Shown one piece after another: positions 3,638 to 44,247 of a DNA stretch of 64,000 nucleotides. The notes under the pieces are model-generated. The model worked only from the letters and a program-made list of their open reading frames with translations, had not been told where the DNA came from and ran no database searches. The translations under genes were made by a program, and so were the position numbers. The stretch comes from a virus: the IMG/VR virus record IMGVR_UViG_3300032294_002823; one strand, 5' to 3'. Position 1 is the stretch's first letter, and each line of letters opens with the position of its first letter.

Positions 3638-3669
3638 CAAACCCGGAATCCGGTGCTATATTACAGTAT

Positions 3670-6225: not shown

Positions 6226-6227
6226 TT

Positions 6228-13337: not shown

Positions 13338-13355
13338 TTGCACTAAGGAGAAATA

Positions 13356-13564: not shown

Positions 13565-13569
13565 CGCTA

Positions 13570-17031: not shown

Positions 17032-17141
17032 TGAAAATTATAGATAAAATTGTTGATTGGCTCATAGAAAAACTTTATAACTACAAATTAAAGCGAAGAA
17101 TGGAAGATATTCGAAAGAAAGATCCTTTCATTTATCCATAA
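17028..17141 (+). CDS. Small protein ending KKDPFIYP (not in ORF track)
   Basis: ATGA overlap with guaC; 37 aa open frame. Confidence 0.55.
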   Translation: MMKIIDKIVDWLIEKLYNYKLKRRMEDIRKKDPFIYP

Positions 17142-17144
17142 GTT

Positions 17145-26197: not shown

Positions 26198-27080
26198 GAA
26201 TATTAAAAATTTTCCCCCTAAAGATATAGTTGGATATCGTGATATTGCCTGGTCAGAACCTAAGCGATATAAACCCGGTCACGAAGAAGCCGTTAAAAAT
26301 TTACGTACATATGAAGATGGTGATGTATTAGTTGAATATAATGCATTAGGATTTCGCGGACCCGACATCACACAATACCCTGACAAGAAAAAAATTGTGT
26401 GTATTGGATGTTCCATGACGGAAGGTGAAGGCGTAAAATATGAACACACGTGGCCAGCACAATTTCAAGAAAGAATCAAAGAGAAGTTAGATATAGATAT
26501 TCCGGTGTTTAATTTAGGACGAAGAAGTTTAGGTACCGCGTCATTTTTTCGTGTGTTGCTTAGTTTAGTTGAGGGAAGAAAAATTAAACCGGATGTTGTA
26601 ATTGTTCTCTTTCCTGAATTTGAACGCCACGAATTGGTGTATGGGGAATGGGATATATTTTTTCGGACCTTTACGGATTTTGAAGATCCTAATGATATTC
26701 GGAAACGCCTATCACATAAGTGGTTCGAGGCCGTGGATTCTTCAACTGCATTTTATCTATGGCTTCAGCAGTATTTTTTAATTAAATATTTTCTGAAGTC
26801 CCATGGCATCATGACGGTTCTTACCTCATGGTCATCCGAATGTCAGAGTTTTCTGAGAGATTTTGATGATGAATATAACGATAGTGGCTATATAGAATGG
26901 GATGCTAAAGATGTCAGTAATGAATTCTATGGTATAGATATCGCTATAGACCATTTACATCCCGGTCCCAAAGGATATAAATTATTTGTAGACAACTTAG
27001 AAAATACATTGTTCACAAACGAACATTTTTTACGAGCAATAACACATGATAATCTGGGGAATTTCAGCCAACAGCCATGA
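26190..27080 (+). CDS. SGNH/GDSL hydrolase-like protein
   Basis: IGCSMTEG, FNLG, DHLHPG. Confidence 0.75.
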   Translation: MFKNIKNFPPKDIVGYRDIAWSEPKRYKPGHEEAVKNLRTYEDGDVLVEYNALGFRGPDITQYPDKKKIVCIGCSMTEGEGVKYEHTWPAQFQERIKEKLDIDIPVFNLGRRSLGTASFFRVLLSLVEGRKIKPDVVIVLFPEFERHELVYGEWDIFFRTFTDFEDPNDIRKRLSHKWFEAVDSSTAFYLWLQQYFLIKYFLKSHGIMTVLTSWSSECQSFLRDFDDEYNDSGYIEWDAKDVSNEFYGIDIAIDHLHPGPKGYKLFVDNLENTLFTNEHFLRAITHDNLGNFSQQP

Positions 27081-28500
27081 TGCTGCCATCTCTGTGGTCC
27101 AAGATGGCGAAATCTTGTATGCATCACAATCTGAACGATATTCAGGAATAAAAAATGATGCTCATTTAAATCCGGGCATTGTTACAGACGCCAAACGATA
27201 TGGTGAGCCTGATGTTGTTGTGTGGTATGAGAATCCTTGGCTGAAAACGTTACGGCAACTTCGTGCAGGACAAGGATGGATCAATAATAGTATTAGAGGG
27301 TATCTAAACAAATACAACATCACGGCACCCGTCACTACTGTAGGACATCACCATAGTCATGCAGCGGGAGGATATTATACCTCCCCATTTAAAGAAGCGG
27401 CTGTATTAGTAATTGATGCCATCGGTGAGTTTGACACTACAACTATTTGGCATGGCACAGATAACAATCTGACAAAGAAATTCTCTGTTAAGTATCCGCA
27501 TAGTTTAGGGTTGTGGTATTCAGCCATGACCCAACGAATAGGATTAAAACCCAATGAAGAAGAATATATTCTCATGGGCATGGCGGCATATGGGGATCCT
27601 TTGAAGTATACTCCAATGATTTTGGAAGATTTCTTTGATAGCAGAGACATTTTGAAGTTGAATGATAATCTTCATCGAGGATGCATGAACTGGCGTCCTG
27701 AATTGAAATCTCAACAAGACTTGTATGATATTGCCGCGGCAACACAATTTGTCTACGAACTATATTTTCATGATTTAGTAGATAAGGCACAAAAACTCAC
27801 AGGAAGTAAAAACTTAGTGTTGGGTGGCGGGTGTGCCTTGAATTGTGTTGCCAATAATATTGCCTTCCAATATTTTGAGAATGTCTGGATTATGCCAAAT
27901 CCGGGCGATGCGGGGAATAGTCTTGGTGCCATTGCTGCTCATCAACAAGAATTCTTGAACTGGCGAGGTCCCTATCTTGGATTTGATATGGGTGTGAAAT
28001 ATCCCACGGGACAATTGATTGAAACACTACAGAAAGATGGCATTGCAGGTGTGGCATTTGGTCGTGCAGAATTTGGTCCTCGTGCTTTAGGACATAGAAG
28101 TTTATTGGCTGATCCTCGCGGTGATGACATCAAGGATAAGGTGAATGTCATCAAGAAACGACAGAAATTCCGTCCCTTTGCGCCTGCCATTCTTGCCGAA
28201 CATGCCCATGAGTATTTCCACATGCCCACTATGGAAAGTCCCTATATGCAATACACGGCATTGTGCAAACATCCTTTACAATTCCCTGCCATTGTACACG
28301 CAGATGGGACATCTCGCGTACAAACGGTTTCTCAAAAGGATTCACCCTACTTTCATAGTTTTTTACAAGAATGGTACAAAGAAACTGGATGCCCGATGAT
28401 TTTAAATACCAGTTTAAACATTAAAGGTAAACCTATGGTGAACAACCGCATTGATGCTATAGAGTTTTCCAAACGATATTCGGTGCCTGTACATACTTGA
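27046..28500 (+). CDS. Carbamoyltransferase (NodU/CmcH family)
   Basis: SHDAA, HHHSHAA, GGCALNC, GDAG, EFGPRALG, RPFAP, HADGTSRVQT, LNTSLN. Confidence 0.93.
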   Translation: MIIWGISANSHDAAISVVQDGEILYASQSERYSGIKNDAHLNPGIVTDAKRYGEPDVVVWYENPWLKTLRQLRAGQGWINNSIRGYLNKYNITAPVTTVGHHHSHAAGGYYTSPFKEAAVLVIDAIGEFDTTTIWHGTDNNLTKKFSVKYPHSLGLWYSAMTQRIGLKPNEEEYILMGMAAYGDPLKYTPMILEDFFDSRDILKLNDNLHRGCMNWRPELKSQQDLYDIAAATQFVYELYFHDLVDKAQKLTGSKNLVLGGGCALNCVANNIAFQYFENVWIMPNPGDAGNSLGAIAAHQQEFLNWRGPYLGFDMGVKYPTGQLIETLQKDGIAGVAFGRAEFGPRALGHRSLLADPRGDDIKDKVNVIKKRQKFRPFAPAILAEHAHEYFHMPTMESPYMQYTALCKHPLQFPAIVHADGTSRVQTVSQKDSPYFHSFLQEWYKETGCPMILNTSLNIKGKPMVNNRIDAIEFSKRYSVPVHT

Positions 28501-28525
28501 CAAACCACAATGAATGATGTATATT
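28497..28525 (+). promoter_or_regulatory. sigma70-type promoter for DNA ligase
   Basis: TTGACA (contains stop)-17-TATATT. Confidence 0.75.
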
Positions 28526-28558
28526 ACATATAGACTCTTAAACGAGGATATATCATTC

Positions 28559-29851
28559 ATGGTGAACCAAATCTTTGAGCAACTTGCCGCGACTACCAGC
28601 CGCCTAGAAAAAGAAGCCATTCTTAAGGAACACCTTGCGGACCTAACACTCCGCAAGGTGTTATTTCTTGCTCTTGATCCATATACACAGTTTTACATTC
28701 GACGCATCATGCCATATAAGACGGGTGTGAGAAACACGCATATCACACTTACACAAGCATTGGATGAATTGGAAAAGTTTTCTTCTCGGACCTTGACGGG
28801 AAATGCAGCATTTCATCATCTTCACTGGATCCTGGAATCTCTTGATGCCGATGATGCCAAGGTGATTGAACGTGTCATTGAAAAAGATTTGAAGTGTGGG
28901 GTGTCTGAGGCTACAGTAAACAAGATTTGGCCTAACTTGATTCCCACATATCCTGTCATGTTGGCATCTGGATTTGATGAGAAAATCATGAATAAAATGA
29001 CCTATCCCGCCTATGTGCAATTGAAGTTGGATGGGATGCGATTCAATGCCATCGTGGAAAATGGTAAAGTGGACTTTCGTTCACGAAACGGTAAGCAAAT
29101 TGATTTGCTTGGAAATCTTGAAGCCGAGTTTCTACAATTGGCAGGTGAACTCCCTGTGGTGTTTGATGGTGAATTGATTGTGAGAGAACGTTCTGGCAAC
29201 ATCATGAACCGTCAGAAAGGTAATGGCATCTTAAACAAGGCGGTAAAGGGTACCATCTCTGAGAACGAAGCCGGTATGGTGGAAGCTGTGGTCTGGGATA
29301 TCATTCCTTTGGGTCATTTCAAGCAAGGTGAGTCCAATTGTTCCTATGAGTCGCGCTTTCAAATTCTTGAAGCAATGGAGATGCCTGAACGTGTTTCACT
29401 GATTGAAAACATTGAAGTCATTTCAGAGGACGAGGCTCATCATTTGTTCGAGGAATATTTCGCCAAGGGAGAGGAAGGTATCATTCTCAAGGACATCACC
29501 AAGGGATGGGAAGATAAGCGCGTAAAGCATCAAGTGAAGTTCAAGGGTGAGTTGGAATGTGACCTTCGTTGTGTGGATTGGCAAGAAGGTACGGGGAAAA
29601 ATGTGGGAAGATTGGGGGCACTGGTACTAGAATCTGCTGACGGCATCATTCAGGTGAATGTTGGGTCAGGATTCACAGATGAACAGCGTGATAAATATAC
29701 AAAGAGTAATACTGTAGGTAAGATTGTTGCCGTCAAGTATAACGCACGTATTTGTGACAAAAAGACCAACGTGGAAAGTCTATTTCTACCGGTTTTTCTT
29801 GAATTACGTGAGGATAAGAGTGTTGCTGATTCGTCAACCATTATTAAATGA
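28559..29851 (+). CDS. gp30: ATP-dependent DNA ligase (gp30)
   Basis: KLDGMR, FDGE, EGIILK, VGSGF, LFLPVF; GAGG SD before ATG 28559. Confidence 0.93.
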   Translation: MVNQIFEQLAATTSRLEKEAILKEHLADLTLRKVLFLALDPYTQFYIRRIMPYKTGVRNTHITLTQALDELEKFSSRTLTGNAAFHHLHWILESLDADDAKVIERVIEKDLKCGVSEATVNKIWPNLIPTYPVMLASGFDEKIMNKMTYPAYVQLKLDGMRFNAIVENGKVDFRSRNGKQIDLLGNLEAEFLQLAGELPVVFDGELIVRERSGNIMNRQKGNGILNKAVKGTISENEAGMVEAVVWDIIPLGHFKQGESNCSYESRFQILEAMEMPERVSLIENIEVISEDEAHHLFEEYFAKGEEGIILKDITKGWEDKRVKHQVKFKGELECDLRCVDWQEGTGKNVGRLGALVLESADGIIQVNVGSGFTDEQRDKYTKSNTVGKIVAVKYNARICDKKTNVESLFLPVFLELREDKSVADSSTIIK

Positions 29852-29858
29852 GGTCGTT

Positions 29859-30047
29859 ATGACTAAGCATGAAGAATATACCGAAGCATTAATGGAACAA
29901 TGTGAGCAAAAAATTCATTATATTTTTCTTGATATTGAAGATGAGTTGGACAACATTGAACAAGAACTAGAAACAGAAGCATCCAAAATTTTATTGAGTT
30001 GGGTACGCGATAGTATCCGGCGTGTTTCAGACAACTACAAAGTATAA
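29859..30047 (+). CDS. Hypothetical acidic protein
   Basis: GAGG SD, ATG 29859. Confidence 0.6.
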   Translation: MTKHEEYTEALMEQCEQKIHYIFLDIEDELDNIEQELETEASKILLSWVRDSIRRVSDNYKV

Positions 30048-30050
30048 ATA
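30043..30050 (+). promoter_or_regulatory. T4-type late promoter TATAAATA (others: +31862, +32736, +42336, +49109, +53988, +62390; minus strand 331-338, 40671-40678)
   Basis: Exact gp55 consensus upstream of late/structural genes; gp33 present. Confidence 0.8.
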
Positions 30051-30055
30051 ATTTT

Positions 30056-30322
30056 ATGCCGACATATGAATATCAGTGTGAAAAATGTGAGCATTATTTC
30101 ACGAAGTATACTAGCATCTCTAACATGAACCTAGCCGAGGAAGAGCCATGTCCTAATTGTACAGAACTGGCAGTCAAGAAGGTGATGTTTACCGCTCCTT
30201 CTATTGGTGACCCCGTGCGTCTACGTATTCGACGCCCTGATGGTGGATTCAAAGAGGTACTACAAAAAATTCATGAAAAGACCCCAGGTTCACGTATCAA
30301 TAACAACAGTAGTTTCATTTAA
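30056..30322 (+). CDS. FmdB-family zinc-ribbon protein
   Basis: MPTYEYQCEKC...CPNC. Confidence 0.85.
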   Translation: MPTYEYQCEKCEHYFTKYTSISNMNLAEEEPCPNCTELAVKKVMFTAPSIGDPVRLRIRRPDGGFKEVLQKIHEKTPGSRINNNSSFI

Positions 30323-30343
30323 ACATCTTTCATTTCACGGTTT

Positions 30344-30379
30344 AACTCCGGCGGAGCCTGCGCTCTGTCGGAGTTTTTT
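30344..30379 (+). terminator. Intrinsic terminator
   Basis: AACTCCGGCGGAGC-CTGC-GCTCTGTCGGAGTT followed by T run. Confidence 0.7.
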
Positions 30380-30403
30380 CACCCCCTACCATGCGAGAAC
30401 GTC

Positions 30404-31150
30404 ATGTCACGTAAAAAGCGTCTCAAACTTGTTGCTCCTGAAATCCCCACGTTCAACAAGAATATCTTAACTTCCTCTGACCTCAAAAACATTTACCCCT
30501 TAACCCACAATCAAGAAACATTTTTCAATTTGTATCGTAAAGGACATTGTGCCATGTTACTACATGGTGTTGCAGGAACAGGTAAAACGTATATCGCCAT
30601 GTATAATGCATTTCAGGAAATTTTAAGTGAAGATGCTGAAGTTAAGAAACTTGTGATTGTTCGTTCAGCAGTACCATCAAGAGATATTGGGTTTCTCCCA
30701 GGCAATGAAAAAGATAAAGTAGAAGTCTATTCCCAACCTTACCAAGAAATATGTGAGGATTTATTTCCAAGATTTGGACCCAAGGCATACACAAAACTAA
30801 AGGAACAAAATCTTGTTAATTTCATGGTGACGTCCTATGTTCGCGGATTGACACTAGACAACTGTATTGTCATTGTGGATGAAGTTCAAAATCTCAACGA
30901 CATGGAATTGAATAGCATCATGACTCGCGTTGGACAAAACACCAAGATTATTTTCTGCGGAGATTTTCGTCAAACCGATTTGAATAGAAAACATGATGTG
31001 TCTGGATTAAGAAAGTTCATGCAAATTGCCAATCATATGCAATCATTCCGTCATGTGGAATTCCAAGTGCAAGATATTGTTCGTAGCCAATTGGTGAAAG
31101 AATATATCATTGCCAGAATGCAATGCGAGGATTTACAACTCGTATCTTGA
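30404..31150 (+). CDS. phoH: PhoH-like ATPase
   Basis: GVAGTGKT, IGFLPG, RGLTL, DEVQN, GDFRQTDL, DIVRS. Confidence 0.93.
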   Translation: MSRKKRLKLVAPEIPTFNKNILTSSDLKNIYPLTHNQETFFNLYRKGHCAMLLHGVAGTGKTYIAMYNAFQEILSEDAEVKKLVIVRSAVPSRDIGFLPGNEKDKVEVYSQPYQEICEDLFPRFGPKAYTKLKEQNLVNFMVTSYVRGLTLDNCIVIVDEVQNLNDMELNSIMTRVGQNTKIIFCGDFRQTDLNRKHDVSGLRKFMQIANHMQSFRHVEFQVQDIVRSQLVKEYIIARMQCEDLQLVS

Positions 31151-31181
31151 CAAACACAACGTAATAAGATAATTTTATATC

Positions 31182-31859
31182 ATGAAAACATTTATACACA
31201 ACCCCGTTGAAATTGAAGAAATCTCAGCCACTACTGGTACTGATGGGAATAGAGTTTATCAAACGCCTGACGGTAAACTCTATCCCTCAGTAACCACAGT
31301 GTTATCTCAGCATACCAAAAAAGGTATCATGGAGTGGAGAGAACGTGTAGGTGCGGATGAAGCCAATAAGATATCTCGGCAAGCCGCCACACGTGGCACC
31401 AAGTTTCATACCCTGGCGGAACGATATCTGAAAAATGCTTCTCAGGAAAAACTGTTCCCAGATAGTTCATTAAAGTCAGTGCTAGACCAAGAACTGTTTG
31501 AGATTGCTAAATCAGAACTGAATAAGATTGACAACATTCGGGCTCAAGAAGTTGCATTATGGTCCCATCACTTACGATTGGCGGGGCGGGTGGATTGCAT
31601 TGCTGAATATGAAGGAAAACTGAGTGTCATTGACTTCAAGACAGCTCGTAGAGAAAAAGATGTGGAGCATATTCAACATTACTTCATGCAGGCGTCCGCG
31701 TATGCTGTGATGTTTGAAGAACGTACAGGCATTCCTGTGAATAGATTGGTGATTGCCATTGCAGTTGAAGATGGATTCATGCAAGTATTTCAAAGTAAAC
31801 GAGATGCTCATATTGAAGGATTATTATACTATCGTGATATGTACGAAGTAATGAAGTGA
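31182..31859 (+). CDS. PD-(D/E)xK exonuclease (T4-like phage exonuclease A type)
   Basis: YPSVTTVL, RGTKFH, AGRVDCI, IDFKT, YFMQ..AY; preceded by TTGACA(31147)-17-TAATTT. Confidence 0.85.
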   Translation: MKTFIHNPVEIEEISATTGTDGNRVYQTPDGKLYPSVTTVLSQHTKKGIMEWRERVGADEANKISRQAATRGTKFHTLAERYLKNASQEKLFPDSSLKSVLDQELFEIAKSELNKIDNIRAQEVALWSHHLRLAGRVDCIAEYEGKLSVIDFKTARREKDVEHIQHYFMQASAYAVMFEERTGIPVNRLVIAIAVEDGFMQVFQSKRDAHIEGLLYYRDMYEVMK

Positions 31860-31874
31860 TGTATAAATAGTATT

Positions 31875-32160
31875 GTAGGATGGTAGTAGATTGCTTAAAT
31901 AGAAACTTTTCTTGGACAGGGGTTCGACTCCCCTCACCTCCACTCAGAAGTACTCAGAAGTATGTTGGTTCGTAGTTTAGGGGGTGCCTGGTTTCGACAG
32001 GGGAAGAAGTACAGGAGAGAGCTACCCGAGAGGCGACTGCCGCAAGCAGAGCAAAAACAATTAAATGACAACAATTACATGTCATTCGCTACCTCTTACG
32101 CCTTAGCTGCGTAAGACACTTTAGCCGGGTTAAGGGGGTTCCTGGGAACAGAATACCCCC
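31875..32160 (+). ncRNA. ssrA: Circularly permuted (two-piece) tmRNA; tag (A)DNNYMSFATSYALAA
   Basis: T-arm AGGGG-TTCGACT-CCCCT and 3' acceptor CACCTCC-A (31918-31942) precede the 5' acceptor GGGGGTG + CCTGGTTTCGAC (31980-); G3:U70 pair; tag ORF 32067-32114; outer ends approximate. Confidence 0.9.
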
Positions 32161-32172
32161 ATTCCCCTTTCT

Positions 32173-32751
32173 ATGAATATGATACCTGAAAACACAGAAA
32201 AAATACACATATTATTTTCAGGAGGTGCCGATAGCACCATTTTGTTGTATTTGCTCTGTAAAGAAAAACAGGACAAAAATTTGTCAGTTCCCATAACATG
32301 TCATGTGATGCTTAATAAACCTAAGCATATTGATGAAATTATTGAGTATATTTCACAGACATTTTCACAGCAAATAGATTGTGTATTCTGGAAACGAAAG
32401 TTTTTTATTCGTATATTCGTGGAATCTATACAGAAAATTTATGGGGGTGTGGTGTTTTCTGGGTGCAATAAGGTTTTAACTGAAGAATTTACTCCTACAT
32501 TCTATCTCCCCGGCGATACCCCTCCTGTTCGGGGTCCTGCTCTTAATGAGTATCATATTCGCCCATTCATTGATATGGACAAGGCGGAAATTATAAAATT
32601 CTATATAGATAATAATGAAATTGAGCTACTACACAAAACCATATCTTGTGGAACTTATAATGATGTCACAGGGACTGAATGTGGGGGGAAGTGTTATTTT
32701 TGTCTTGAGCGAGATTGGGCACTGAAACAAGTTAATATAAATAGTAGATAA
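32173..32751 (+). CDS. QueC-like PP-loop ATPase
   Basis: SGGADS; TISC...CGGKCYFCLER. Confidence 0.75.
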   Translation: MNMIPENTEKIHILFSGGADSTILLYLLCKEKQDKNLSVPITCHVMLNKPKHIDEIIEYISQTFSQQIDCVFWKRKFFIRIFVESIQKIYGGVVFSGCNKVLTEEFTPTFYLPGDTPPVRGPALNEYHIRPFIDMDKAEIIKFYIDNNEIELLHKTISCGTYNDVTGTECGGKCYFCLERDWALKQVNINSR

Positions 32752-32772
32752 TAACCAAACTTTGGAGATTCT

Positions 32773-34317
32773 ATGCTGAAATATAACGTCATTTATCACT
32801 CTGATGCAGATGTTGCTGCATTAAAGACAACATTATCTGAAATGGGTGTTGTTGTTCATGAAGAATTTTCTGAACTAAAAGTCTTAAACATTTCAGCAAA
32901 TGATACCACTTTTTCAAGTGTCACCGGCATTGTGGCATTTGAAGAAGATAAGGAAGTTAGTGTTGCCGCCTCCTCAACTCCTTGGCATCTATTAAGATTA
33001 TCTAGTCTAAGCTTACCAATGAAACCTTCTTACGTTCCTAAAAATTTTGGTGAACAAGGAGTTGTATATTTGGTGGATTCAGGTGTTGATAGTACACATG
33101 AACAATTTTCTCACACAACCATTGTAAATCTCCATACTTATCTTGAAAATGATTTCACTGATACTGTAGGTCATGGTACATCAATGGCAAGTTTGATTGT
33201 AGGTAATACATTGGGTGCATCAAAAAATGCCACGCTGAAAAATGTAAAGATTCCCATGTCAGCCAATACCACATTGAGTGTATTGTTGTCAGCATTCAAT
33301 AGTATTTTGTCAGACCATGCATTAACATCAGGTGTTAAAGTTGTAAACTGTTCGTGGACAATACCTAAGAGTCAAATACTTGACACCAAAATTCAAGAAC
33401 TTCAAAACGCCGGATTGGTAGTTGTGGCTGCAGCAGGTAACACGGGTGAAGCTGCCGACAACTTTTCACCTGTTGGTTTAGATACAGTAATAGGTGTGGC
33501 TGCTTCTGATGCCTATGACCGTGTTATTTCATGGGCGACCGGTGCGTCAAGTAACTGGGGGCCTGAAGTTGATGTAACAGCACCTGGTATTGGTATTGAT
33601 ACGGCATCAATACACAGTGAAACAGGATATGATGTTTCATCTGGAACATCAGTGGCAAGCGCACTTGTTTCAGCCGTAATTTGTCAGCACATTACCGGAG
33701 ATGCAACGTTAACAGCAACACAAATTAAATCTCGAATTATGTTACAACCATATTCTTCAGAAGATGTTTTGTTCCGCAATGAAACCATTTATGGCACAAC
33801 TCCTAATCGTTTAATGCATTGTCTTTTCATTGATGCGTTGATTAACAACATCAAAGATCCTGTCGTCATCAAGGCTGGAGAAACGTCAACATTTACACTA
33901 CAATTAACACAATATGTAGATACTGTTAATGTTCATAATGTTGTTATAGGAGCAAGACAGCATGAAATTCCTTCATGGACATCGTTTGATGTGGCAACCA
34001 ATACATTCACATTCAATCCTCCTGTAGATATTACAATGAAGCGTATTGTTATCATGACGGAATTGTTTTTTGAGGGTGAAAAAGTAGGTGTCCCTGGCTT
34101 TGAACTTCGAATTTATCATAACGATGTCAGTGAGTTTGATACAGAAGAAACCTATCATTTGGTATTACGTGAAAATGAAAATGATGTTGTGTTCGTCACA
34201 CCCGGCTCATGTCAGGGAAATTGTACCGCGTGGTCACCATGTCCTCCAGGTGGAAAGCAGGGTTGTAATTGCTCTAGTGATTGGAGCGGTTGGTGTGTTG
34301 TACCCCTTCAGAGTTAA
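32773..34317 (+). CDS. Subtilisin-like S8 protease with propeptide-like N-terminus and six-Cys C-terminal tail
   Basis: VDSG (Asp), GHGT (His), AAAGN (oxyanion Asn), SGTS (Ser). Confidence 0.9.
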   Translation: MLKYNVIYHSDADVAALKTTLSEMGVVVHEEFSELKVLNISANDTTFSSVTGIVAFEEDKEVSVAASSTPWHLLRLSSLSLPMKPSYVPKNFGEQGVVYLVDSGVDSTHEQFSHTTIVNLHTYLENDFTDTVGHGTSMASLIVGNTLGASKNATLKNVKIPMSANTTLSVLLSAFNSILSDHALTSGVKVVNCSWTIPKSQILDTKIQELQNAGLVVVAAAGNTGEAADNFSPVGLDTVIGVAASDAYDRVISWATGASSNWGPEVDVTAPGIGIDTASIHSETGYDVSSGTSVASALVSAVICQHITGDATLTATQIKSRIMLQPYSSEDVLFRNETIYGTTPNRLMHCLFIDALINNIKDPVVIKAGETSTFTLQLTQYVDTVNVHNVVIGARQHEIPSWTSFDVATNTFTFNPPVDITMKRIVIMTELFFEGEKVGVPGFELRIYHNDVSEFDTEETYHLVLRENENDVVFVTPGSCQGNCTAWSPCPPGGKQGCNCSSDWSGWCVVPLQS

Positions 34318-34332
34318 TATCTTGTTTTTATT

Positions 34333-35001
34333 ATGGCTTCAAAAATTATAAGTAGTAAAAACTCTGAGTTGAAATTTTGGTGGATTAAAATACCTCGAAC
34401 AGGAACATATGCATATTCAAGGTTGTTTGGGTTGTACAATTCTGAAATGTTGTATCAACCCAAACACACCCATGAATCCTACAGACAGTTACAAGATATT
34501 GAAAAATTACCAGCATTCACTGTTGTACGAAATCCCGTAGATAGACTATTTTCATCACTTTCTCATTACTTACATTTACAGGAACGGTGTAGACAAGGAA
34601 ACTGCCTTTATGAAAGTAATACCGTGTGTGCCTGGCATAGTACAGACATCCCTGTTGATAGTGTAGAAGTAATGTATAAATTTTTTACTGAGTATGCTAC
34701 TAGAGACATGATGGATGTAAAAGCACAAATAATATTCAGTGATAATATTTTTAGGTCTCAAACATGGTATGCATATCATCCTAAGGTGAAAATATTTCGT
34801 TATGAGAACATCACGGAATTCAATGATTGGATCTCAACCACATTAGGATATGATGTTTCACCATTACAACGTATTAATGAAACTCAACCAAGATTTCTGT
34901 ATAATATAGACAAACAACATCCATTATTCATTAAAACAGCAGAACATCTCTATAACATAGATTTTAAAACCTTTAACTACCCCTTGCAGTACTTGACATA
35001 A
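34333..35001 (+). CDS. Sulfotransferase family 2-like protein
   Basis: IKIPRTGT, VVRNPVDRLFSS, YNIDFKTFNY. Confidence 0.75.
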   Translation: MASKIISSKNSELKFWWIKIPRTGTYAYSRLFGLYNSEMLYQPKHTHESYRQLQDIEKLPAFTVVRNPVDRLFSSLSHYLHLQERCRQGNCLYESNTVCAWHSTDIPVDSVEVMYKFFTEYATRDMMDVKAQIIFSDNIFRSQTWYAYHPKVKIFRYENITEFNDWISTTLGYDVSPLQRINETQPRFLYNIDKQHPLFIKTAEHLYNIDFKTFNYPLQYLT

Positions 35002-35044
35002 GGCTGCAAGGGTGTTAAGTTTAATAGAAACGAATGGAGGATTA

Positions 35045-35554
35045 ATGACGAAATTCATTAGCATACTAGTAGCATGTGTTCTATTAGCTGTGGTGCCTAC
35101 CACTCTCTCGCGTGCGCACGTGCCTGTACTACCCAAAAAGCCATTCAAGGTTATTTCAGAAAAGGAATTGACTTGTTTGGCAAAGAACATAGCATTTGAA
35201 GCTCCTGATGAATCATACGAAGGAAAGTTGGCAGTAGCCACTGTTACCATGAATCGTGTGAAATCTCGGTCATTCCCTAAGACGGTGTGTGGTGTTGTCT
35301 ACCAGAGAAATCCTCGGGGATGCCAATTCTCTTGGACATGCGGTCCACGTGGACGATTGGAAAAAGACATCTATGCTGAGTCACGAAGAATTGCACGAGC
35401 AGTATTGACACAGAATCTTCGACTCACTAGTTTAAAGAATGCCTTGTATTTTCATAATACAAGTGTGAGCCCCAATTGGAGTTTCGCTGAACCCATTAAA
35501 CAAATAGGAAATCATATATTTTATGCCCCAAGAAGAAACAACCCAACCACCTGA
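35045..35554 (+). CDS. Cell-wall hydrolase SleB/Hydrolase_2
   Basis: CLAKNIAFEA, VTMNRV, CQFSW, IGNHIFY; signal-like N-terminus; promoter TTGACA(34993)-17-TAAGTT. Confidence 0.88.
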   Translation: MTKFISILVACVLLAVVPTTLSRAHVPVLPKKPFKVISEKELTCLAKNIAFEAPDESYEGKLAVATVTMNRVKSRSFPKTVCGVVYQRNPRGCQFSWTCGPRGRLEKDIYAESRRIARAVLTQNLRLTSLKNALYFHNTSVSPNWSFAEPIKQIGNHIFYAPRRNNPTT

Positions 35555-35813
35555 GTTAGAGAATGTTGCCCTTACGGTAACCTATCTCATTACTAGAGAA
35601 TTCACAAATCCCACAGATTTCTCTATGCACATTGAAAAAGAAGCAGTGCGTAGAAAGATTGGTTACATGGAAGCCATTGTGGATTATTGTGAAGAAAATG
35701 ATATTGACACCGGGGCGTTGACTGGATTGATTTCCAATTCTCTGAAAGAAAAAATTCGTGCCGAAGCGGAAGAAATGAATTTGCTCAAGAAAACAAGTAA
35801 ACTTCCTCTATGA
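35523..35813 (+). CDS. gp33: Late transcription co-activator
   Basis: YMEAIVDYCEENDID...SLKEKIRAEA; synteny 33-59-32. Confidence 0.85.
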   Translation: MPQEETTQPPELENVALTVTYLITREFTNPTDFSMHIEKEAVRRKIGYMEAIVDYCEENDIDTGALTGLISNSLKEKIRAEAEEMNLLKKTSKLPL

Positions 35814-36394
35814 CCATTAACGAAGCCTACAAAATTTACACGGCGTTACGATTACACTTCACAACAGACAACTTTGATATACGAAATGGTGTTCCTCCCA
35901 GAGCACCTAAGACAGGTGTAAAGACGGCGTTCAGTAAAAAGCTAGAACAAATGATGAAGCAGTATAATTATGATTCAGAAGCATTTGTAGGATTTCTCGT
36001 ATCAAATTTTTTGTCTGGGCATGAATGGGGTGCCATTTTTGAACCCACAGGGCATGAAGTATATCTTGAATGGAAAAAGATTCAAGAAAGATTAACATAT
36101 ACATTTACACAAGACATTGACTTTCTCGCATTGCAAGTGAATAAAGTGGATGATTTATGGAAATGTACTGGCGAACATCCGGTGATATTGAAGTCGTATT
36201 GTGGTAAAAAAAGTCGGTTGGAAACACTTGTAATTCTAAATAAATTATATAAGTTTAGAGAACAGTTAGATGAACAACTAAAAAATGACCCCGTATGGGC
36301 ATCAACATCTAGACTGGTATACAAATATTCACCGTTTGTTAACATCAACAAGGAAAAATTTTCAATGATTGTAAAGAAGGCCTTCAATGAGTAA
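35810..36394 (+). CDS. gp59: Helicase loader
   Basis: YTALRLHFT, VSNF, ETLVIL, KYSPF. Confidence 0.85.
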   Translation: MTINEAYKIYTALRLHFTTDNFDIRNGVPPRAPKTGVKTAFSKKLEQMMKQYNYDSEAFVGFLVSNFLSGHEWGAIFEPTGHEVYLEWKKIQERLTYTFTQDIDFLALQVNKVDDLWKCTGEHPVILKSYCGKKSRLETLVILNKLYKFREQLDEQLKNDPVWASTSRLVYKYSPFVNINKEKFSMIVKKAFNE

Positions 36395-36575
36395 ACATCA
36401 CGATTGGGAAGATGATGACTATCGTAGTTTCAAGAAGCCCAAAAGAGTAGAAAAAGACAAGTTCGGTAAGCATCGTAAGGCAATTTACGATATGCTTGAC
36501 ACTGAGTTTGACGAAGATTATTTTAATGATGCATACTCTGATGAAGATTATGATGAGGTTGATGATAGGTATTAA
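36387..36575 (+). CDS. Small basic/acidic hypothetical protein
   Basis: ORF between gp59 and gp32. Confidence 0.6.
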   Translation: MSKHHDWEDDDYRSFKKPKRVEKDKFGKHRKAIYDMLDTEFDEDYFNDAYSDEDYDEVDDRY

Positions 36576-36646
36576 TATCATGGCAGGTCCGTAGTATCAT
36601 ACGTTTTACACACTAACATACAACGCTATACGCAAGGAGTAACACA

Positions 36647-37564
36647 ATGTCTTACACAAGTTTATCCGATTTACGCAAGTCACGTGGCAATTTCGACAGT
36701 CTCATGAAGGAAGTTGAAAAGATTGCCAACCCCACAAACGAACGCCGCGAAGATGACCGTTTTTGGTCTCCTTCAGTTGACAAGGCAGGTAATGGATATG
36801 CCGTGATTCGTTTTCTTCCTCCCACAAAGGGTGAGGAGCTTCCTTGGATTCGTGTTTGGAATCATGGGTTTCAAGGACCATCAGGTCGCTGGTACATTGA
36901 AAACAGCTTGACCACATTGAATCTTCCCGATCCTGTATCTGAATTGAATTCAGAACTTTGGAACTCCGGAATTGAGAGCAATAAGGAAATTGCTCGTAAG
37001 CAGAAGCGTCGTTTAAATTACATCGCTAACATTCTTGTTGTAAAGGACTCTGCCAATCCTCAGAACGAAGGTAAGGTGTTCCTGTACAAGTTTGGCAAGA
37101 AGATTTTCGATAAGATTAAGGACATCATGCAGCCTCAGTTTGAGGATGAGGAGCCCATCAATCCCTTTGATTTCTGGAAGGGTGCAAACTTCAAGCTCAA
37201 GATTCGTAATGTCGAAGGATATCGCAATTACGACAAGTCTGAATTCGAACCTGTCTCAGCCATTGCTGACTCAGATGATGACATCGAAACAGTTTGGAAT
37301 CAACAACATGCACTTCAACCCTTCGTTGATCCCAAGAACTTCAAGAGCTACGAAGAATTGAAGAAGAAGCTCGACATGGTATTGAAGGGAAGCCCGGTTG
37401 CTTCCATGACGGCTGATAAGATTTCTGAGAGCCGGATGGATGAAGAGCCAGTTGCAGAATCTCCTAAGGTGCGTTCTGCCCCAGCTCCAACCTTCAAGTC
37501 ATCAGGTGCTGACGAAGATGACGATGATACTCTAAGTTACTTCGCCAAGTTGGCTGAAGATTAA
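36647..37564 (+). CDS. gp32: Single-stranded DNA-binding protein
   Basis: DKAGNGYAVIRFLP, WYIENSLTT, GANFKLK, YRNYDKS, acidic tail. Confidence 0.95.
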   Translation: MSYTSLSDLRKSRGNFDSLMKEVEKIANPTNERREDDRFWSPSVDKAGNGYAVIRFLPPTKGEELPWIRVWNHGFQGPSGRWYIENSLTTLNLPDPVSELNSELWNSGIESNKEIARKQKRRLNYIANILVVKDSANPQNEGKVFLYKFGKKIFDKIKDIMQPQFEDEEPINPFDFWKGANFKLKIRNVEGYRNYDKSEFEPVSAIADSDDDIETVWNQQHALQPFVDPKNFKSYEELKKKLDMVLKGSPVASMTADKISESRMDEEPVAESPKVRSAPAPTFKSSGADEDDDDTLSYFAKLAED

Positions 37565-37583
37565 TTCTTAGATATAGCTAAAA

Positions 37584-37613
37584 AGAAAAGGGAGCCCGAA
37601 AGCTCCCTTTTCT
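37584..37613. terminator. Bidirectional intrinsic terminator
   Basis: AGAAAAGGGAGC-CCGAAA-GCTCCCTTTTCT between convergent genes. Confidence 0.88.
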
Positions 37614-37614
37614 G

Positions 37615-39747
37615 CTATACTCGCGCAACTCGCTTATCTTGGAATCGAACAAAACTATTGTCTTGTATTCGTATTTCTGTGGGTCCTATTGCAGGAGCGC
37701 CGCCGCCGCCTCCTGACACATTGGTGACGACCGTACTGCCACCGCCACCTGTTGGTGCTACCATGGCAGGTATTGAATTTTCTGTTGCCGTTGATACCAT
37801 CCCTGCTGTATCTCCAGGTGCGCCTTCTATGGAAGCATTTGACATATCTCTTGCTGCCAATCCGGCATCTATGGCAGCACTTGCTGCCGTGCCTATGCCA
37901 GGCACTGTTGATGCAGCACCTGAGGCAACTTCTCCTAAGGCACCTTTCCAATCACCTGATAGTAATCGTGATGCTCCAAATCCCAATCCTGCCACTAATC
38001 CTATACCAGGTATTTTCTTTAGTAATGATTTACCTAATGCTTTGGCACCTACTTTACCTGCTGCTCGCGCACCCAATCCGCCTGCAACTCTGGACGCCAA
38101 AGGTGCTGCGCGTGATAGTAATGACCCTCCCTTGCTCATTAATCTTGAGGATCCGCGCATTAAACTTCCCCCTAATCCCTTGGTCTTTGAGAGCATTCTT
38201 CCTCCCAAGCGATCCATAATCATTTGTCCCATTCCACCACCACCTGATTGTTGTTCTGCACTGGCAACTTGTTGTGCTTCTGCACTGCCCACTTTTGCAG
38301 ATTGAACAGCTTCTACTTGCCCCTTCACTTCTTCATCGGTGAGTGTAGATTGCCCTGAATCTTCTTCACTATCACGTTCTTTATCGACCTTTGCACTAGT
38401 CCCTGTATTATCAGCAATTTTTTCTAAGGCACTAAGAATATTACTTTGTACTTTACCTTGTTCTTCTAATGCAGACAACAATTCAGTAGGAGCAGCAATG
38501 CTTTCCGCCGTTCTTTCTATCGGAGAAATTCTTCCTTCTTCTGCTGCCATTTGTTCCAATTCTTTTATACTGGTCTTTTTCAATTCAGAAGATGAAAGAC
38601 CCAATTGTTGATTCAATTCATCCTTACTGAACAATCCTCTGCCTGATGTGCGCGCAGTTTCTTTACTGATATACTGTCCAGTATCAGTGTCCCGATATTT
38701 ACCACCCTTGTCTCGTTGTAGACTACCTTCCACGATGCCACGAATTACTGATACTTCTTGTAGCAGAGATTGTAGTGTTACCAGTACAGCACTATCTTCC
38801 GATGCATTTTCTGTGGCATCACCTATTGCATCCGCCATATCAGAAGTAGTTTCAGGATTTACAGAACCTTGTTCCATTCTACCCATTAATCCTTGTAACT
38901 CCTCTTGCTGACGCATTGCCTCACGTTCAGATTCTATGAGTTGTGCGTTACTAGGAGCTTTTTTATCAGGTTCCAATAGAACACTACCAAAGGCTTGCAT
39001 GAATCCTTTACCGGTCGTCACCTTCTTTAAGTTGCCCGTGAGCATATCTTTATATGATTGTCCTTCTTCGGGATTCCAACTTAATCCAGGTGCAAACTTT
39101 CGTAAAGCGGCTGTGGTGTCACCCTTAATGGCATCCATCATGGTAAGACGCTTTTCTTCAGGTTCTTGCATCTTGTTCTGTATTTCTTCAGACAACTTTT
39201 TCTGCGTTTCCAGAGACTTTGTTAAGCGTTCTTTATCTTTCTTCAATGTTGTTAATTCCACAACACGCGCTTCAAGGTCTCTCTTGATTTCTTCTTTTTC
39301 TTTCTCTGTGACAGTTTTATCTTCTTGTGCCTTTTCTTGCCAGTATTTCAGATAACGAACTTCTTCTTCCTTACTTTCCACTTCTTTCTCATTGACGACA
39401 ATATCCTTCTCCACCTTTTCTGTTTGCTTTTCGGTTTGTACAACCATTTTTGCAAACATGGTTCGTAATTCTTCTCTGTCTTTGGTTGTATCACCTTGAC
39501 TGGTTGCCATTTTTTTCAAGGCGTCAAGCATGTCTTGAAAAATCTTCTTCTGTTCATCTGAAAAATCTACTTCGTTTTGAACAGACAAGTTTTCAATTAT
39601 TGAACCAATACTGGTTGACATTTGCCCAGCAAATTCCATGTTTCTTTGCAAGTTGTCAGCAGGCGAGATTTTTAACATACTTGCCTGTAGATTTTTTGCA
39701 ATCTCATCCTTTGTTTTATTTGCCTTGGGCTTACTTTTACGAGCCAT
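37615..39747 (-). CDS. Tape-measure / baseplate hub protein (gp29-like)
   Basis: Coiled-coil N-half, Gly/Ala-rich GKSLLKKIPGIG segment; position downstream of gp26/gp51. Confidence 0.65.
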   Translation of the reverse strand: MARKSKPKANKTKDEIAKNLQASMLKISPADNLQRNMEFAGQMSTSIGSIIENLSVQNEVDFSDEQKKIFQDMLDALKKMATSQGDTTKDREELRTMFAKMVVQTEKQTEKVEKDIVVNEKEVESKEEEVRYLKYWQEKAQEDKTVTEKEKEEIKRDLEARVVELTTLKKDKERLTKSLETQKKLSEEIQNKMQEPEEKRLTMMDAIKGDTTAALRKFAPGLSWNPEEGQSYKDMLTGNLKKVTTGKGFMQAFGSVLLEPDKKAPSNAQLIESEREAMRQQEELQGLMGRMEQGSVNPETTSDMADAIGDATENASEDSAVLVTLQSLLQEVSVIRGIVEGSLQRDKGGKYRDTDTGQYISKETARTSGRGLFSKDELNQQLGLSSSELKKTSIKELEQMAAEEGRISPIERTAESIAAPTELLSALEEQGKVQSNILSALEKIADNTGTSAKVDKERDSEEDSGQSTLTDEEVKGQVEAVQSAKVGSAEAQQVASAEQQSGGGGMGQMIMDRLGGRMLSKTKGLGGSLMRGSSRLMSKGGSLLSRAAPLASRVAGGLGARAAGKVGAKALGKSLLKKIPGIGLVAGLGFGASRLLSGDWKGALGEVASGAASTVPGIGTAASAAIDAGLAARDMSNASIEGAPGDTAGMVSTATENSIPAMVAPTGGGGSTVVTNVSGGGGGAPAIGPTEIRIQDNSFVRFQDKRVARV

Positions 39748-39759
39748 GATGGATTCCTA

Positions 39760-39942
39760 TTAGTATTGTTGATTCTTTTTTTGAGCCTTTTTTTCTAAAT
39801 GACGTATTAACATACCAACGTACACATCTCTTTCCCATGGCATCATATTCTCTAGCTCAGATAAAGAATATTGATGTTCTTGCATCAATATGAAATTTGT
39901 TTCGTAATAATTGATGACAGAATCATGAGAAAGAGTTAAACG
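39760..39942 (-). CDS. gp51: Baseplate hub assembly protein gp51 (no start before the conserved region; likely reached by -1 frameshift from gp26)
   Basis: LSHDSVINYYETNFILMQEHQYSLSELENMMPWERDVY; first ATG only at 39885. Confidence 0.8.
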   Translation of the reverse strand, partial: RLTLSHDSVINYYETNFILMQEHQYSLSELENMMPWERDVYVGMLIRHLEKKAQKKNQQY

Positions 39943-40634
39943 AAAAAATTGACTATCTCATTGATGTTTACAATATTATTTCTTGCACACTTTGGACATG
40001 CAAAACGAATATCGTGATGAATTGCTGGCATTGTATCAAAAAACAATTTCATCATTTCAAACTGTGTACTTGTCACATTGTCAACAAATTCACGAAAATC
40101 TTCTTGTGTAGCATTTTCTCGGTTGTATACTTCTTCGTTCGTTTGAATAGTTTCAATACAGTGTGCCACCATATCGTAGATGTCATCAACCGTGGCATCT
40201 GGATTTGATAACAATGCCAAATGTTCAATTTTTGGATATCGCATCATCACAATTAAATCTTTCGATAACTCTAACCGATTGGTATGATGTTCATTGTATA
40301 ATACTTCTACTTGATTGATATCAATTGTTGATGATGTTGAATGTTTACAATTACCACAGATGAGATTGAATTCAATGATTTCACCCACAGATTTTCCACG
40401 TATTTCTAAAAATAATTTCTGTACGTCAACCATAGAATGAGTATCACATGAGACTGTTCCTTTTGTACACGCCAATACAGCTTCATTTAATGCACGCAAC
40501 ACGGCATTTCTATCACCACTTTCAGATGCCAATAACAATAATTTTTCTTCTCTCATGACAAACGGACGAAACGTCACTTTTTGTTTTGATACGGGTAATG
40601 TAGTTTCAAAAGTTGGTAAATGATTTATTTTCAT
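39936..40634 (-). CDS. gp26: Baseplate hub assembly protein
   Basis: FRPFVMREEKLLL, IRGKSVGE, CGNC, MRYPK, CPKC, ends NFFV. Confidence 0.88.
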   Translation of the reverse strand: MKINHLPTFETTLPVSKQKVTFRPFVMREEKLLLLASESGDRNAVLRALNEAVLACTKGTVSCDTHSMVDVQKLFLEIRGKSVGEIIEFNLICGNCKHSTSSTIDINQVEVLYNEHHTNRLELSKDLIVMMRYPKIEHLALLSNPDATVDDIYDMVAHCIETIQTNEEVYNRENATQEDFREFVDNVTSTQFEMMKLFFDTMPAIHHDIRFACPKCARNNIVNINEIVNFFV

Positions 40635-40642
40635 AATTTATC

Positions 40643-41206
40643 CTATGTTGTAATGTTTTCAACCGTCCAATATTTATAGGCAAATCCAATATTCAAACGA
40701 TGAATTCCTACGGCAGAATATGATGTCTGCATCAAATTCATTGACTTAGGAAATGCCTCATGCAATTTCACTTTATATCGTGTTGTTTCTTTGTATCCCT
40801 GAACAGGCGTGGGACCAATGGGACCTTCATGTACAGCCTCAATAATGATGTCACCGATGATGTCTCTGTATGGTGCCACTTCACGGGAAGTGCCAATAAT
40901 GGCATTCATCCAATCATCAAAAAACTTTTTCACCTTCCATTCAGAGTCAACAAAAAATGTAAAGTTGGCTGACTCTCCAAAAAAGTCAACCGCAGAAGGA
41001 CGTTGAATGTTTAAATTGTGTATTCGTGCTGGTCGTGTAATAATGGTTTTACCCGGAAACGCGGCTTCTTCACAAAACAATGTGAGTAGCTGGTCAGCAG
41101 GAGCTGTAACTATGTTGGGTTTGGAAACAATAGTTACAGAAAATTTTTCAGATTTTGCCAATCCTTTGGCACGTACTACTGTGAGAAAATTTTCTATACT
41201 AGGCAT
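40643..41206 (-). CDS. Tail tube / baseplate-tube initiator (gp19/gp54 family)
   Basis: FCEEAAFPG, FFDDWMN, LHEAFP, FAYKYW. Confidence 0.75.
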   Translation of the reverse strand: MPSIENFLTVVRAKGLAKSEKFSVTIVSKPNIVTAPADQLLTLFCEEAAFPGKTIITRPARIHNLNIQRPSAVDFFGESANFTFFVDSEWKVKKFFDDWMNAIIGTSREVAPYRDIIGDIIIEAVHEGPIGPTPVQGYKETTRYKVKLHEAFPKSMNLMQTSYSAVGIHRLNIGFAYKYWTVENITT

Positions 41207-41786: not shown

Positions 41787-41868
41787 AAAGTGGTGAAATT
41801 GGGGGCTTGACTACTACTTGACAAGGTGATAAATTCACTATGTTAGGGATGAATAGATAATTCTGTTA

Positions 41869-42336: not shown

Positions 42337-42374
42337 ATAAATAATAGGTAAACGTTCTTCACGGGATTATTTAG

Positions 42375-44245: not shown

Positions 44246-44247
44246 TT

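Follow-up and report, generated by a model that had tools for sequence, protein, structure and literature searches.

Knottins, a group that includes the cyclotides, PA1b, squash inhibitors, asteropsins and wrightides, derive from secreted precursors and follow a cysteine spacing of C-x3-7-C-x3-8-C-x0-7-C-x1-4-C-x4-13-C. Subtilases of the proteinase K type, among them proteinase K, aqualysin I, the cold-adapted proteinases of Vibrio and Serratia, and PCSK9, combine an S8 fold and an intact D/H/S triad with an N-terminal I9-type prodomain, a mature N-terminus of the form W-x-L-x-R and a further C-terminal domain that in PCSK9 is rich in cysteine. Cap9 of type IV CBASS, which is small (about 190 residues) and has a QueC-like PP-loop, is encoded beside its target protein and acts as a protein-modifying ligase of the QueC family (PMC13329287; bioRxiv 10.1101/2025.04.06.647259), and QueC-family ATPases of this kind have recently been shown to modify proteins in bacterial immunity. 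Proteases are also paired with an ATP-dependent PP-loop enzyme in lasso-peptide systems (the B and C proteins), and the QhpE/QhpD system of QHNDH couples an S8 protease to Cys-rich peptide chemistry.

We analyzed a 64,000-nucleotide stretch of DNA, hereafter the window, from an uncultured, aquatic, T4-like phage (IMG/VR record IMGVR_UViG_3300032294_002823) and find a module that unites three things not known together: a phage proteinase-K-type enzyme, a knottin-like variable mini-domain and a minimal QueC-family ATPase. A literature search found no description of a protease/PP-loop/sulfotransferase module and no knottin from prokaryotic viruses, and we know of none that has been described. The phage subtilase shares with its proteinase-K-type relatives the S8 fold (TMt ~0.9, rmsd ~2 Å), triad, predicted prodomain, mature N-terminus and additional C-terminal region listed above, and like PCSK9 is Cys-rich in that region. 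Unlike them, it is phage-encoded, late and without a signal peptide, has an obligatory PP-loop neighbor, and ends in a He_PIG Ig-like domain followed by a knot of 30–40 residues. Our best explanation, offered tentatively, is a late, self-activating proteinase-K-type subtilase with a swappable recognition knob whose lysine is modified by the PP-loop enzyme.

Domain architecture of the phage subtilase

The subtilase ORF (32773..34317, + strand) encodes 514 residues plus a stop and was delineated by Pfam, alignment and an AF2 model with a mean pLDDT of 89.9. A T4-type late promoter consensus, TATAAATA, lies 30 nt before the subtilase ATG (32736..32743, + strand); the consensus occurs at nine sites in the window, mostly just 5′ of structural genes, and among 31 distinct Cys-tail loci, 15 have an exact copy 29–49 nt 5′ of the protease. 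Pfam Peptidase_S8 matches the protein at 81 bits (cut-off 21.8), and residues D102, H134 and S293, in the expected D-H-S order, are unchanged together with the oxyanion residue N223 across 120 homologues, bearing out the intact triad read from the sequence alone. The absence of a signal peptide was likewise confirmed, with no hydrophobic signal at the N-terminus. The S8 catalytic domain (residues 71–350; 32983..33822, + strand), assigned by Foldseek and alignment, superposes on 1s2n, 2prk, 4dzt and 2b6n (E ~1e-23, TMt 0.86–0.92, rmsd 2.0–2.5 Å), with proteinase K, aqualysin, Vibrio and Serratia proteinases and the PCSK9 catalytic domain among its matches. By sequence and predicted structure, the protein belongs to the proteinase K subfamily of peptidase family S8. 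Searches of a phage collection returned no megablast match for positions 30000–38000 and, by tblastn, S8 domains only, at 31% identity or less; PADLOC reported nothing at the locus beyond generic QueC and subtilase matches. A low lysine content of the protease (3.5%) was dropped as a signal, being ordinary for subtilases.

The model also corrects the sequence-only reading at the N-terminus, where the first 62 residues are, by predicted topology, an I9-like prodomain (32773..32958, + strand) with the order β-α-β-β-α-β. The junction that follows (residues 63–70) is disordered, with pLDDT below 50 at residues 63–67 of the AF2 model, and BFVD matches carry the annotation 'Peptidase inhibitor I9'; Pfam I9 was not detected on the prodomain at E 0.01. 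On the C-terminal side, what had been taken for a β-rich linker is indeed β-rich and is instead a confidently folded Ig-like β-sandwich of the He_PIG type (residues 351–477; 33823..34203, + strand), all β with pLDDT of 86–96 in the AF2 model. A profile of the C-terminal region matches 5–33 repeats within giant proteins, the two best matches being He_PIG/Big_9/Cadherin_5 repeat proteins, and an ESM Atlas search with residues 351–514 gave only sub-threshold Big_2 leads. Ig-like domains of this kind are present in giant surface adhesins, and cyanophage proteins annotated as baseplate or fibre also combine S8 and Ig domains.

Beyond the Ig-like domain lies a six-Cys knottin-like core (C480 to C508; 34210..34296, + strand), defined from the alignment and an AF2 model of the tail, whose C-x3-C-x5-C-x7-C-x-C-x7-C pattern agrees exactly in coordinates and spacing with the sequence-only reading. 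Homologues of the tail family are metagenomic, and more than 100 keep the Cys framework: among 120, the tail has six cysteines in 101, four in 16, 14 in one and an odd number in none, a pattern far beyond chance. CII and CV are missing jointly from the 16 four-Cys tails, and tails of the CC form have a compensating additional terminal Cys; from this joint loss and compensation we infer a CII–CV pair. The window tail (3-5-7-1-7) fits the knottin consensus, as do most of the 101 six-Cys relatives, some of which have third loops of up to 12 residues, outside it, and the knottin/cyclotide-type spacing first proposed for one protein holds family-wide, with C-x-C at CIV–CV or CC at CIII–CIV. Aligning homologues, as suggested with that proposal, revealed hypervariable loops on a fixed Cys frame, with a non-Cys identity of 0.15 and 39% gaps in the tail versus 0.60 in the catalytic domain. 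Tail pN exceeds that of the rest of the protein 10–17-fold in three close pairs; pS is likewise elevated, suggesting that tails are swapped. Ratios of dN to dS gave no sign of positive selection on the tail, with omega below 1 everywhere and dS saturated or recombination-raised.

The AF2 model of the tail (pLDDT 74.9) matches cystine-knot peptides alone, including a cyclotide and PA1b, both kinds named in the sequence-only reading; the matches themselves are weak, comprising two Foldseek rows (E ~8, TMt 0.54–0.67) and three of 48,161 VIA rows (2n2g, 1r1f and 1p8b at Z 2.1–2.3), and the model perhaps just echoes knottins from the Cys spacing. Disulfides are favored over thioethers or metal binding because Cys counts are even, CII and CV are lost jointly, and the predicted fold matches only knottins. 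In contrast to described knottins, the phage knot is fused to an enzyme C-terminus and carries an invariant loop lysine; its matches to the knotted three-strand fold are weak, and of the I–IV, II–V and III–VI disulfides of knottins the sequences support II–V only. If the knottin assignment is correct, no cystine-knot domain would, to our knowledge, have been reported from a prokaryotic virus before.

The PP-loop neighbor and the exchanged cassette

The gene immediately upstream encodes a QueC-like PP-loop ATPase of 192 residues (32173..32751, + strand), whose recognition from sequence alone is upheld by Pfam QueC (33.9 bits, cut-off 22) alongside ATP_bind_3. An SGGxDS motif (S16-G-G-x-D20-S21), RPF(x)4K and a Cys zinc motif (C159, C170, C174 and C177) do not vary among 32 homologues. 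Of the solved structures the best match is Cap9 (9nto_B, E 4.9e-6), which has the same SGGxDS, PF(x)4K and Cys zinc motifs, a similar size and a gene likewise placed beside that of its target, here the candidate target protease. Wherever a locus of the Cys-tail clade includes upstream DNA, the PP-loop gene lies directly 5′ of the protease, and it adjoins the protease in 76 of 76 such loci when both clades of the family are counted. Canonical QueC substrate motifs are YxQxHxxE, VPxRN and YPDC (PMC13329287). These are absent from the phage alignment, which has GCNKV and GDTPPVRG instead, and the NCBIfam QueC model scores 22 bits against a cut-off of 150, which together rule out a preQ0 synthase. 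Protein deazaguanylation of the type seen with Cap9 and QatC (QatABCD), which calls for a partner with an N-terminal Gly acceptor, a supply of 7-deazaguanine and a TGT-like reader, is not supported either: the YxQ, RN and YxDC motifs of the Cap9 active site are lost, the protease N-termini show no Gly, and the nearest record (G001, 66% complete) yielded no TGT partner. The phage enzyme further differs from Cap9 and QatC in that its proposed acceptor is a lysine side chain and in being phage-encoded rather than part of a defense system. A search for fused PP-loop–protease forms (longer QueC-like proteins) gave none, which counts for little. Identity of the QueC-like protein tracks that of the protease body (r 0.91), and tail-specific co-variation with it is weak (partial r 0.16).

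Comparison of the window with three related loci (L001–L003) revealed a divergent allele island of three genes (32254..34945), with 19–71 mismatches per 200 bp inside and 0–7 outside. All three genes have dS of 0.70–0.74, versus 0.008–0.07 in flanking genes. The PP-loop, protease and sulfotransferase genes are a sharply bounded, exchanged cassette, and the same cassette is swapped as a unit in other phage pairs too; that the flanking enzymes belong with the protease, as the sequence-only reading held, is therefore supported by their inheritance as one cassette.

An invariant lysine and the role of the tail

A single non-Cys tail residue is invariant, Lys495 (codon 34255..34257, + strand). All 117 of the four- and six-Cys tails place a lysine in the loop leading to CIV, with G/T/P/S before it and G/S/N/A after it, and 114 of 120 tails contain exactly one Lys. 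A sister clade, 27–38% identical to the protease, has no Cys tail, an absence that the sequence-only reading had named as counting against its own proposal, and here Lys is the last or penultimate residue in 114 of 118 relatives versus 10% for control windows. Because this clade keeps both the C-terminal Lys and a PP-loop neighbor, in its case Asn-synthetase-like, the knot is an add-on rather than an essential substrate.

These observations are consistent with a mechanism in which the subtilase, made up of the I9-like prodomain, the S8 and He_PIG Ig-like domains and a knottin-like mini-domain closed by two or three disulfides, would keep its knot attached as an exchangeable recognition or stabilizing knob. 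The enzyme would work where disulfides can form, either on the virion or once the host has lysed, and its probable target would be material of the host envelope or surface; because the protein has no signal peptide, an extracellular or virion-borne place of action is a guess. The knob, or the short C-terminal peptide of the sister clade, would display one invariant exposed Lys, and the PP-loop ATPase, as obligatory partner, would adenylate a carboxylate and ligate it to that Lys, by analogy with Cap9 and QatC, which act on protein N-terminal amines, and TilS, which acts on a lysine ε-amine. A carbohydrate-type sulfotransferase would be a frequent accessory. Extended further, the module would be a lysine-directed protein-tailoring system, new to description, in aquatic T4-like phages, with conjugation of the adenylated carboxylate to the knob or C-terminal Lys arming, anchoring or retargeting the protease; we regard this version as possible but doubtful, and the invariant Lys could instead be a structural or binding residue.

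Of the competing accounts, the strongest is the RiPP-like protease-precursor fusion suggested by the sequence-only reading, which we nonetheless consider unlikely. Here the subtilase itself or a host protease would cut after the Ig-like domain, ahead of the first Cys, to free a 35-residue knottin-like peptide, which the PP-loop enzyme may process by amidation, Lys acylation or head-to-tail cyclization of an adenylated C-terminus and on which the sulfotransferase may act too. Residues P1–P2 before CI are mostly small or aromatic and acceptable to proteinase-K-type enzymes, but CI lies only about three residues after the last strand of the folded Ig-like domain, and the family alignment contains neither a linker nor a conserved cleavage motif before the tail. 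At the other end, the tail of one relative (P0227) runs straight into a Hint domain, implying that chemistry takes place at the tail C-terminus, whereas residues after CVI vary and the conserved Asn/Asp of the cyclotide cyclization site is absent. Hypervariable loops on a constant Cys frame resemble toxin and cyclotide families, protease bodies exchange tail classes, and the modifying enzymes are inherited together with the protease; yet the knot-less sister clade retains the PP-loop partner and terminal Lys, the sulfotransferase belongs to the carbohydrate type and is missing from 22 of 52 loci, and a search of 80 loci and the window for stand-alone knottin-like small ORFs gave off-frame noise only, with none near tail-less proteases.

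A second account, distinctly improbable in our estimation, holds that the subtilase matures another substrate (a small peptide of the radical SAM (rSAM) cassette, or a virion or host protein), in a partnership with the PP-loop enzyme like that of the lasso-peptide B and C proteins or of QhpE with QhpD, while the Cys tail serves as a stabilizing or targeting appendage. It would explain why the PP-loop/protease pair is kept whatever the tail, and in the tail-less clade the pair sits amid rSAM, SPASM-like and GT2 genes. Models for QhpE and PatA/PatG nevertheless give generic, weak matches, far under the cut-offs for RiPP protease families (43 versus 165 bits for QhpE), lasso systems use a transglutaminase-like Cys protease together with a cyclase that is a full Asn-synthetase homologue, and, unlike in lasso and QhpE systems, a separate precursor gene was not found at the phage locus. 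Nor does this account explain the invariant C-terminal Lys, and the rSAM cassette it invokes, 6.5 kb away, is swapped independently of the protease cassette.

The same genomic evidence makes it very unlikely that the phage SPASM/rSAM enzymes act on the tail, turning it into a ranthipeptide or SCIFF-like thioether peptide, and argues against the link to the rSAM operon drawn in the sequence-only reading. The tail does hold six Cys in 29 residues, and the window encodes several rSAM proteins with SPASM/twitch-like domains. The nearest of these genes, however, ends 6.5 kb upstream, beyond genes for a ligase, PhoH, an exonuclease and tmRNA, so that no SPASM rSAM maturase adjoins the putative precursor, the arrangement that defines ranthipeptides and SCIFFs. 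The window and L001–L003 have the same tail class despite unalignable rSAM regions, indicating independent replacement of the operon; 13 of ~26 loci with 9–10 kb of upstream DNA show no rSAM hit within it; and the clade that adjoins rSAM genes is the tail-less one. Even Cys counts and the pairing of Cys gains and losses fit Cys–Cys bonds rather than thioethers from Cys to other residues. A cytoplasmic metal-binding module (Zn or Fe-S), conceivable for six tail Cys made without a signal peptide in the reducing cytoplasm, is about as improbable, given tails with neither CxxC pairs nor His, loops of 0 to 12 residues, four- and 14-Cys variants and fold matches to disulfide knots only.

Distribution and the sulfotransferase

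Among the matches listed, which come from lake and marine metagenomes, relatives of the subtilase fall into more than 240 clusters at 90% identity. A relative is encoded on 158 viral contigs; the module is common, intact and under purifying selection. If the tail is a recognition knob, as in our preferred explanation, knobs would be exchanged between phages much like receptor-binding modules, repeated cassette exchange would mark an arms race over host interaction in abundant uncultured phages, and the family would amount to a library, ready-made in nature, of small binders rich in disulfides. Should the PP-loop enzyme modify the invariant Lys, QueC-family conjugation would extend from defense to phages and from N-termini to lysine.

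The third cassette gene encodes a Sulfotransfer_2-like protein of 222 residues (34333..35001, + strand). The window copy itself falls below the Pfam cut-off (16.9 bits), but PF03567 recognizes 16 of 18 homologues, with E 2.3e-7 for the best, in agreement with the sulfotransferase neighbor named in the sequence-only reading. Its PAPS-binding motifs (5′-PSB and 3′-PB: P21-x-T23-x-T25 and R66-x-P68..R71..S74) are invariant or nearly so, and the best solved relative, a weak match, is heparan sulfate 2-O-sulfotransferase. The gene is present in 30 of 52 Cys-tail loci and absent from the remaining 22. Sulfation of a tail Tyr was considered and rejected: inspection by eye found no link between sulfotransferase presence and tail Tyr, and the window tail lacks Tyr. 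Elsewhere in the window (12675–14136), a paralogous QueC-like gene lies beside another sulfotransferase, which could mean that the PP-loop enzyme works in sulfation or glycan chemistry instead.

A subtilase cassette in a T4-like phage

The window comes from a T4-like myovirus: gp32 is encoded at 36647-37564, and the genes for baseplate and tail proteins start at 39.9 kb. The plus-strand cassette of QueC-like (32173-32751), protease and Sulfotransfer_2-like (34333-35001) genes lies shortly after those for PhoH, DNA ligase and a PD-(D/E)XK exonuclease. No close cultured phage was found in a 50,697-record phage collection, and the nearest relatives are IMG/VR contigs. G+C content is 48-56% in positions 1-8000 versus 32-45% in the remainder. 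A permuted two-piece tmRNA at 31882-32114 (Rfam RF04321, 119.9 bits; alpha_tmRNA, 60.4 bits) is preceded by a TATAAATA copy at 31862 and followed directly by the QueC-like gene. The protease ORF is itself preceded by TATAAATA at 32736-32743; eight further copies occur in the window, most just upstream of structural genes, and an exact copy lies ahead of the protease in 15 of 31 distinct related loci.

The protease ORF (32773-34317) encodes 514 residues and scores well over the Peptidase_S8 cut-off. A word-indexed protein search returned 532 proteins at E ≤ 0.001, and across the 120 listed (~500 residues each, query coverage 68-100%) the catalytic residues D102, H134 and S293 and the oxyanion residue N223 are unchanged. 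An AF2 model built from these 120 homologue sequences (mean pLDDT 89.9) predicts an N-terminal β-α-β-β-α-β prodomain (residues 1-62), a disordered junction (residues 63-70), a catalytic domain that Foldseek groups with those of proteinase K, aqualysin and PCSK9 (TMt ~0.9), an all-β domain modeled with confidence (residues 351-477) and a tail of lower confidence (pLDDT 60-67). The profile built from residues 348-514 matches 5-33 repeats per giant protein, and because its best two giant-protein matches are He_PIG/Big_9/Cadherin_5 repeat proteins, the segment described as a β-rich linker in the sequence-only reading is better assigned as an Ig-like adhesin-type domain.

A variable cysteine-rich tail

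The six-cysteine core of the tail lies exactly at 34210-34296, and both its position and its knottin-like spacing hold as originally described. Among the 120 listed homologues of the 532, the tail carries six cysteines in 101, four in 16, 14 in one and none in two, with an odd count in none. Loop lengths are highly variable around a retained C-x-C (or CC); the second and fifth cysteines (CII and CV) are jointly missing from four-cysteine tails, and where CC stands at CIV-CV, CII is missing and an additional cysteine is present at the C-terminus. Since cysteines are gained and lost in pairs, they behave as disulfide partners would, in a way that fits a II-V bond as in knottins; thioethers to non-cysteine residues and a fixed metal site are each at odds with this pattern. 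The 14-cysteine tail, in a 535-aa relative (P0086), is extended and possibly a double knot, with a lysine in the first part. A tail-only AF2 model (pLDDT 74.9) yielded exclusively knottins as fold matches, namely MCh-1 and wrightide R1 by Foldseek against 350,542 chains (E ~8) and asteropsin F, the cyclotide palicourein and PA1b by VIA against 48,161 representatives (Z 2.1-2.3). These scores are weak, as expected at ~35 residues, and the cysteine spacing may bias the model, so we term the predicted fold knottin-like, not proven.

The expected hypervariability of loops on a cysteine frame is clear, with non-cysteine tail positions averaging 15% identity and 39% gaps versus 60% identity in the catalytic domain, and a relative 82% identical to the protease sharing just 34% identity in the tail. 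Close pairs have both pS and pN raised in the tail, and some distant pairs are more alike in the tail than in the body, which indicates that tails form classes swapped among protease bodies. Omega > 1 was never seen.

Exchange of the three-gene cassette

Positions 27038-44310 align to three related metagenomic loci (L001-L003) at 96% identity overall and ~99% outside the protease island. Differences cluster in 32254-34945, a stretch that coincides exactly with the three cassette genes, upholding the proposal that the flanking enzymes are co-inherited with the protease. The three genes have dS of 0.70-0.74 and dN/dS of 0.10-0.17, versus 0.008-0.07 and 0.00-0.31 in seven flanking genes, a comparison that rejects local hypermutation and indicates an old allele imported by recombination, with purifying selection apparent on all three genes. 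Like patterns separate L010 from L034-L038 (flanks 93-95%, pair ~60%) and L027 from L030 and L046 (flanks 92%, pair 39%). The rSAM region upstream of 27038 is unalignable to L001-L003, which indicates that the rSAM cassette was replaced independently of the protease cassette and does not sustain the suggested link to the rSAM operon. This second independently replaced cassette, an rSAM/SGNH cassette at 17000-27037 upstream of the carbamoyltransferase gene, shares no nucleotide similarity with L001-L003. At 42600-43000, inside the baseplate tail-tube-cap gene (42375-43496), divergence from L003 rises locally to 35 mismatches in 400 bp (background ~2 per 200 bp).

A PP-loop partner and an invariant lysine

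A PP-loop ATPase gene adjoins the protease in 76 of 76 loci with upstream DNA; four further loci, where the contig end cuts off this DNA, fall outside the count. The partner in the Cys-tail clade is QueC-like, ~190 aa and on the same strand as the protease, and in a tail-less sister clade it is a 335-396 aa PP-loop protein with Asn_synthase-like matches and mostly divergent orientation. Sister-clade proteases (27-38% identity) share the prodomain, S8 and Ig-like architecture and stop a few residues past the last strand without cysteines there, and lysine is last or penultimate in 114 of 118 full-length members (any lysine at all is present in just 10% of six-residue control segments). Lysine likewise occupies the loop ahead of CIV in all 117 four- or six-cysteine tails (Lys495 in the window protease, 34255-34257), flanked by small residues and in nearly all cases the only one in the tail. 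Because a PP-loop neighbor and one exposed C-terminal lysine persist with or without the knot, the most economical hypothesis is that the PP-loop enzyme modifies this lysine. TilS, also a PP-loop enzyme, uses a lysine ε-amine. QueC-like identity tracks that of the protease body (r 0.91) and, with the body controlled for, only weakly that of the tail (partial r 0.16), which fits recognition of invariant features and not variable loops. The window QueC-like protein retains the SGGxDS, RPF(x)4K and zinc cysteine motifs, and its best solved relative is Cap9, but the substrate motifs of QueC and Cap9 are absent, and it has GCNKV and GDTPPVRG motifs of its own. Both Cap9 and QatC use ATP to ligate 7-carboxy-7-deazaguanine to a partner protein at its N-terminal amine (PMC13329287; bioRxiv 10.1101/2025.04.06.647259).

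This phage module is real and widespread, and undescribed as far as we could find in the literature. Our best reading, held tentatively and at somewhat below an even chance, is a late-expressed protease bearing an exchangeable disulfide knob, on which the PP-loop partner would tailor the invariant lysine. The cassette sulfotransferase is a Sulfotransfer_2 protein of the carbohydrate type whose PAPS-binding motifs are intact, and 30 of 52 Cys-tail loci encode one, in some cases one gene farther downstream. A paralogous QueC-like gene at 13570-14136 (hhalign probability 99.8% to the QueC-like homologue profile, 25% identity) adjoins a second Sulfotransfer_2 gene (12675-13337), and owing to this second pairing, joint action of the PP-loop enzyme and sulfotransferase on a glycan stays a live alternative. 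An APS-kinase/nucleotidyltransferase fusion (10755-11552) also lies beside the paralogous gene. Release of the knot peptide from a protease-precursor fusion, as originally proposed, is unlikely given that no linker precedes the knot and no separate knottin ORF was found near the proteases of the tail-less clade, although a Hint/Vint domain directly after the tail of one 648-aa relative (P0227; E 1.2e-5, 25.7 bits, just below the cut-off of 27), beginning with a cysteine five residues past the last knot cysteine, would make a thioester at the tail C-terminus and is a clue to chemistry there.

In some relatives a second QueC-like gene (L015, 7831-8409; L031 and L032, 7176-7757; L052, 7833-8420) precedes the QueC-like/protease pair by 1.6-2.8 kb and matches the QueC-like profile at E 1e-27 to 1e-32. 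In a tail-less-clade locus (L059, 5900-13600), the PP-loop/protease pair lies among genes for a GT2 glycosyltransferase, a radical SAM protein, a DUF6445-like protein and a protein whose N-terminal segment is SPASM-like.
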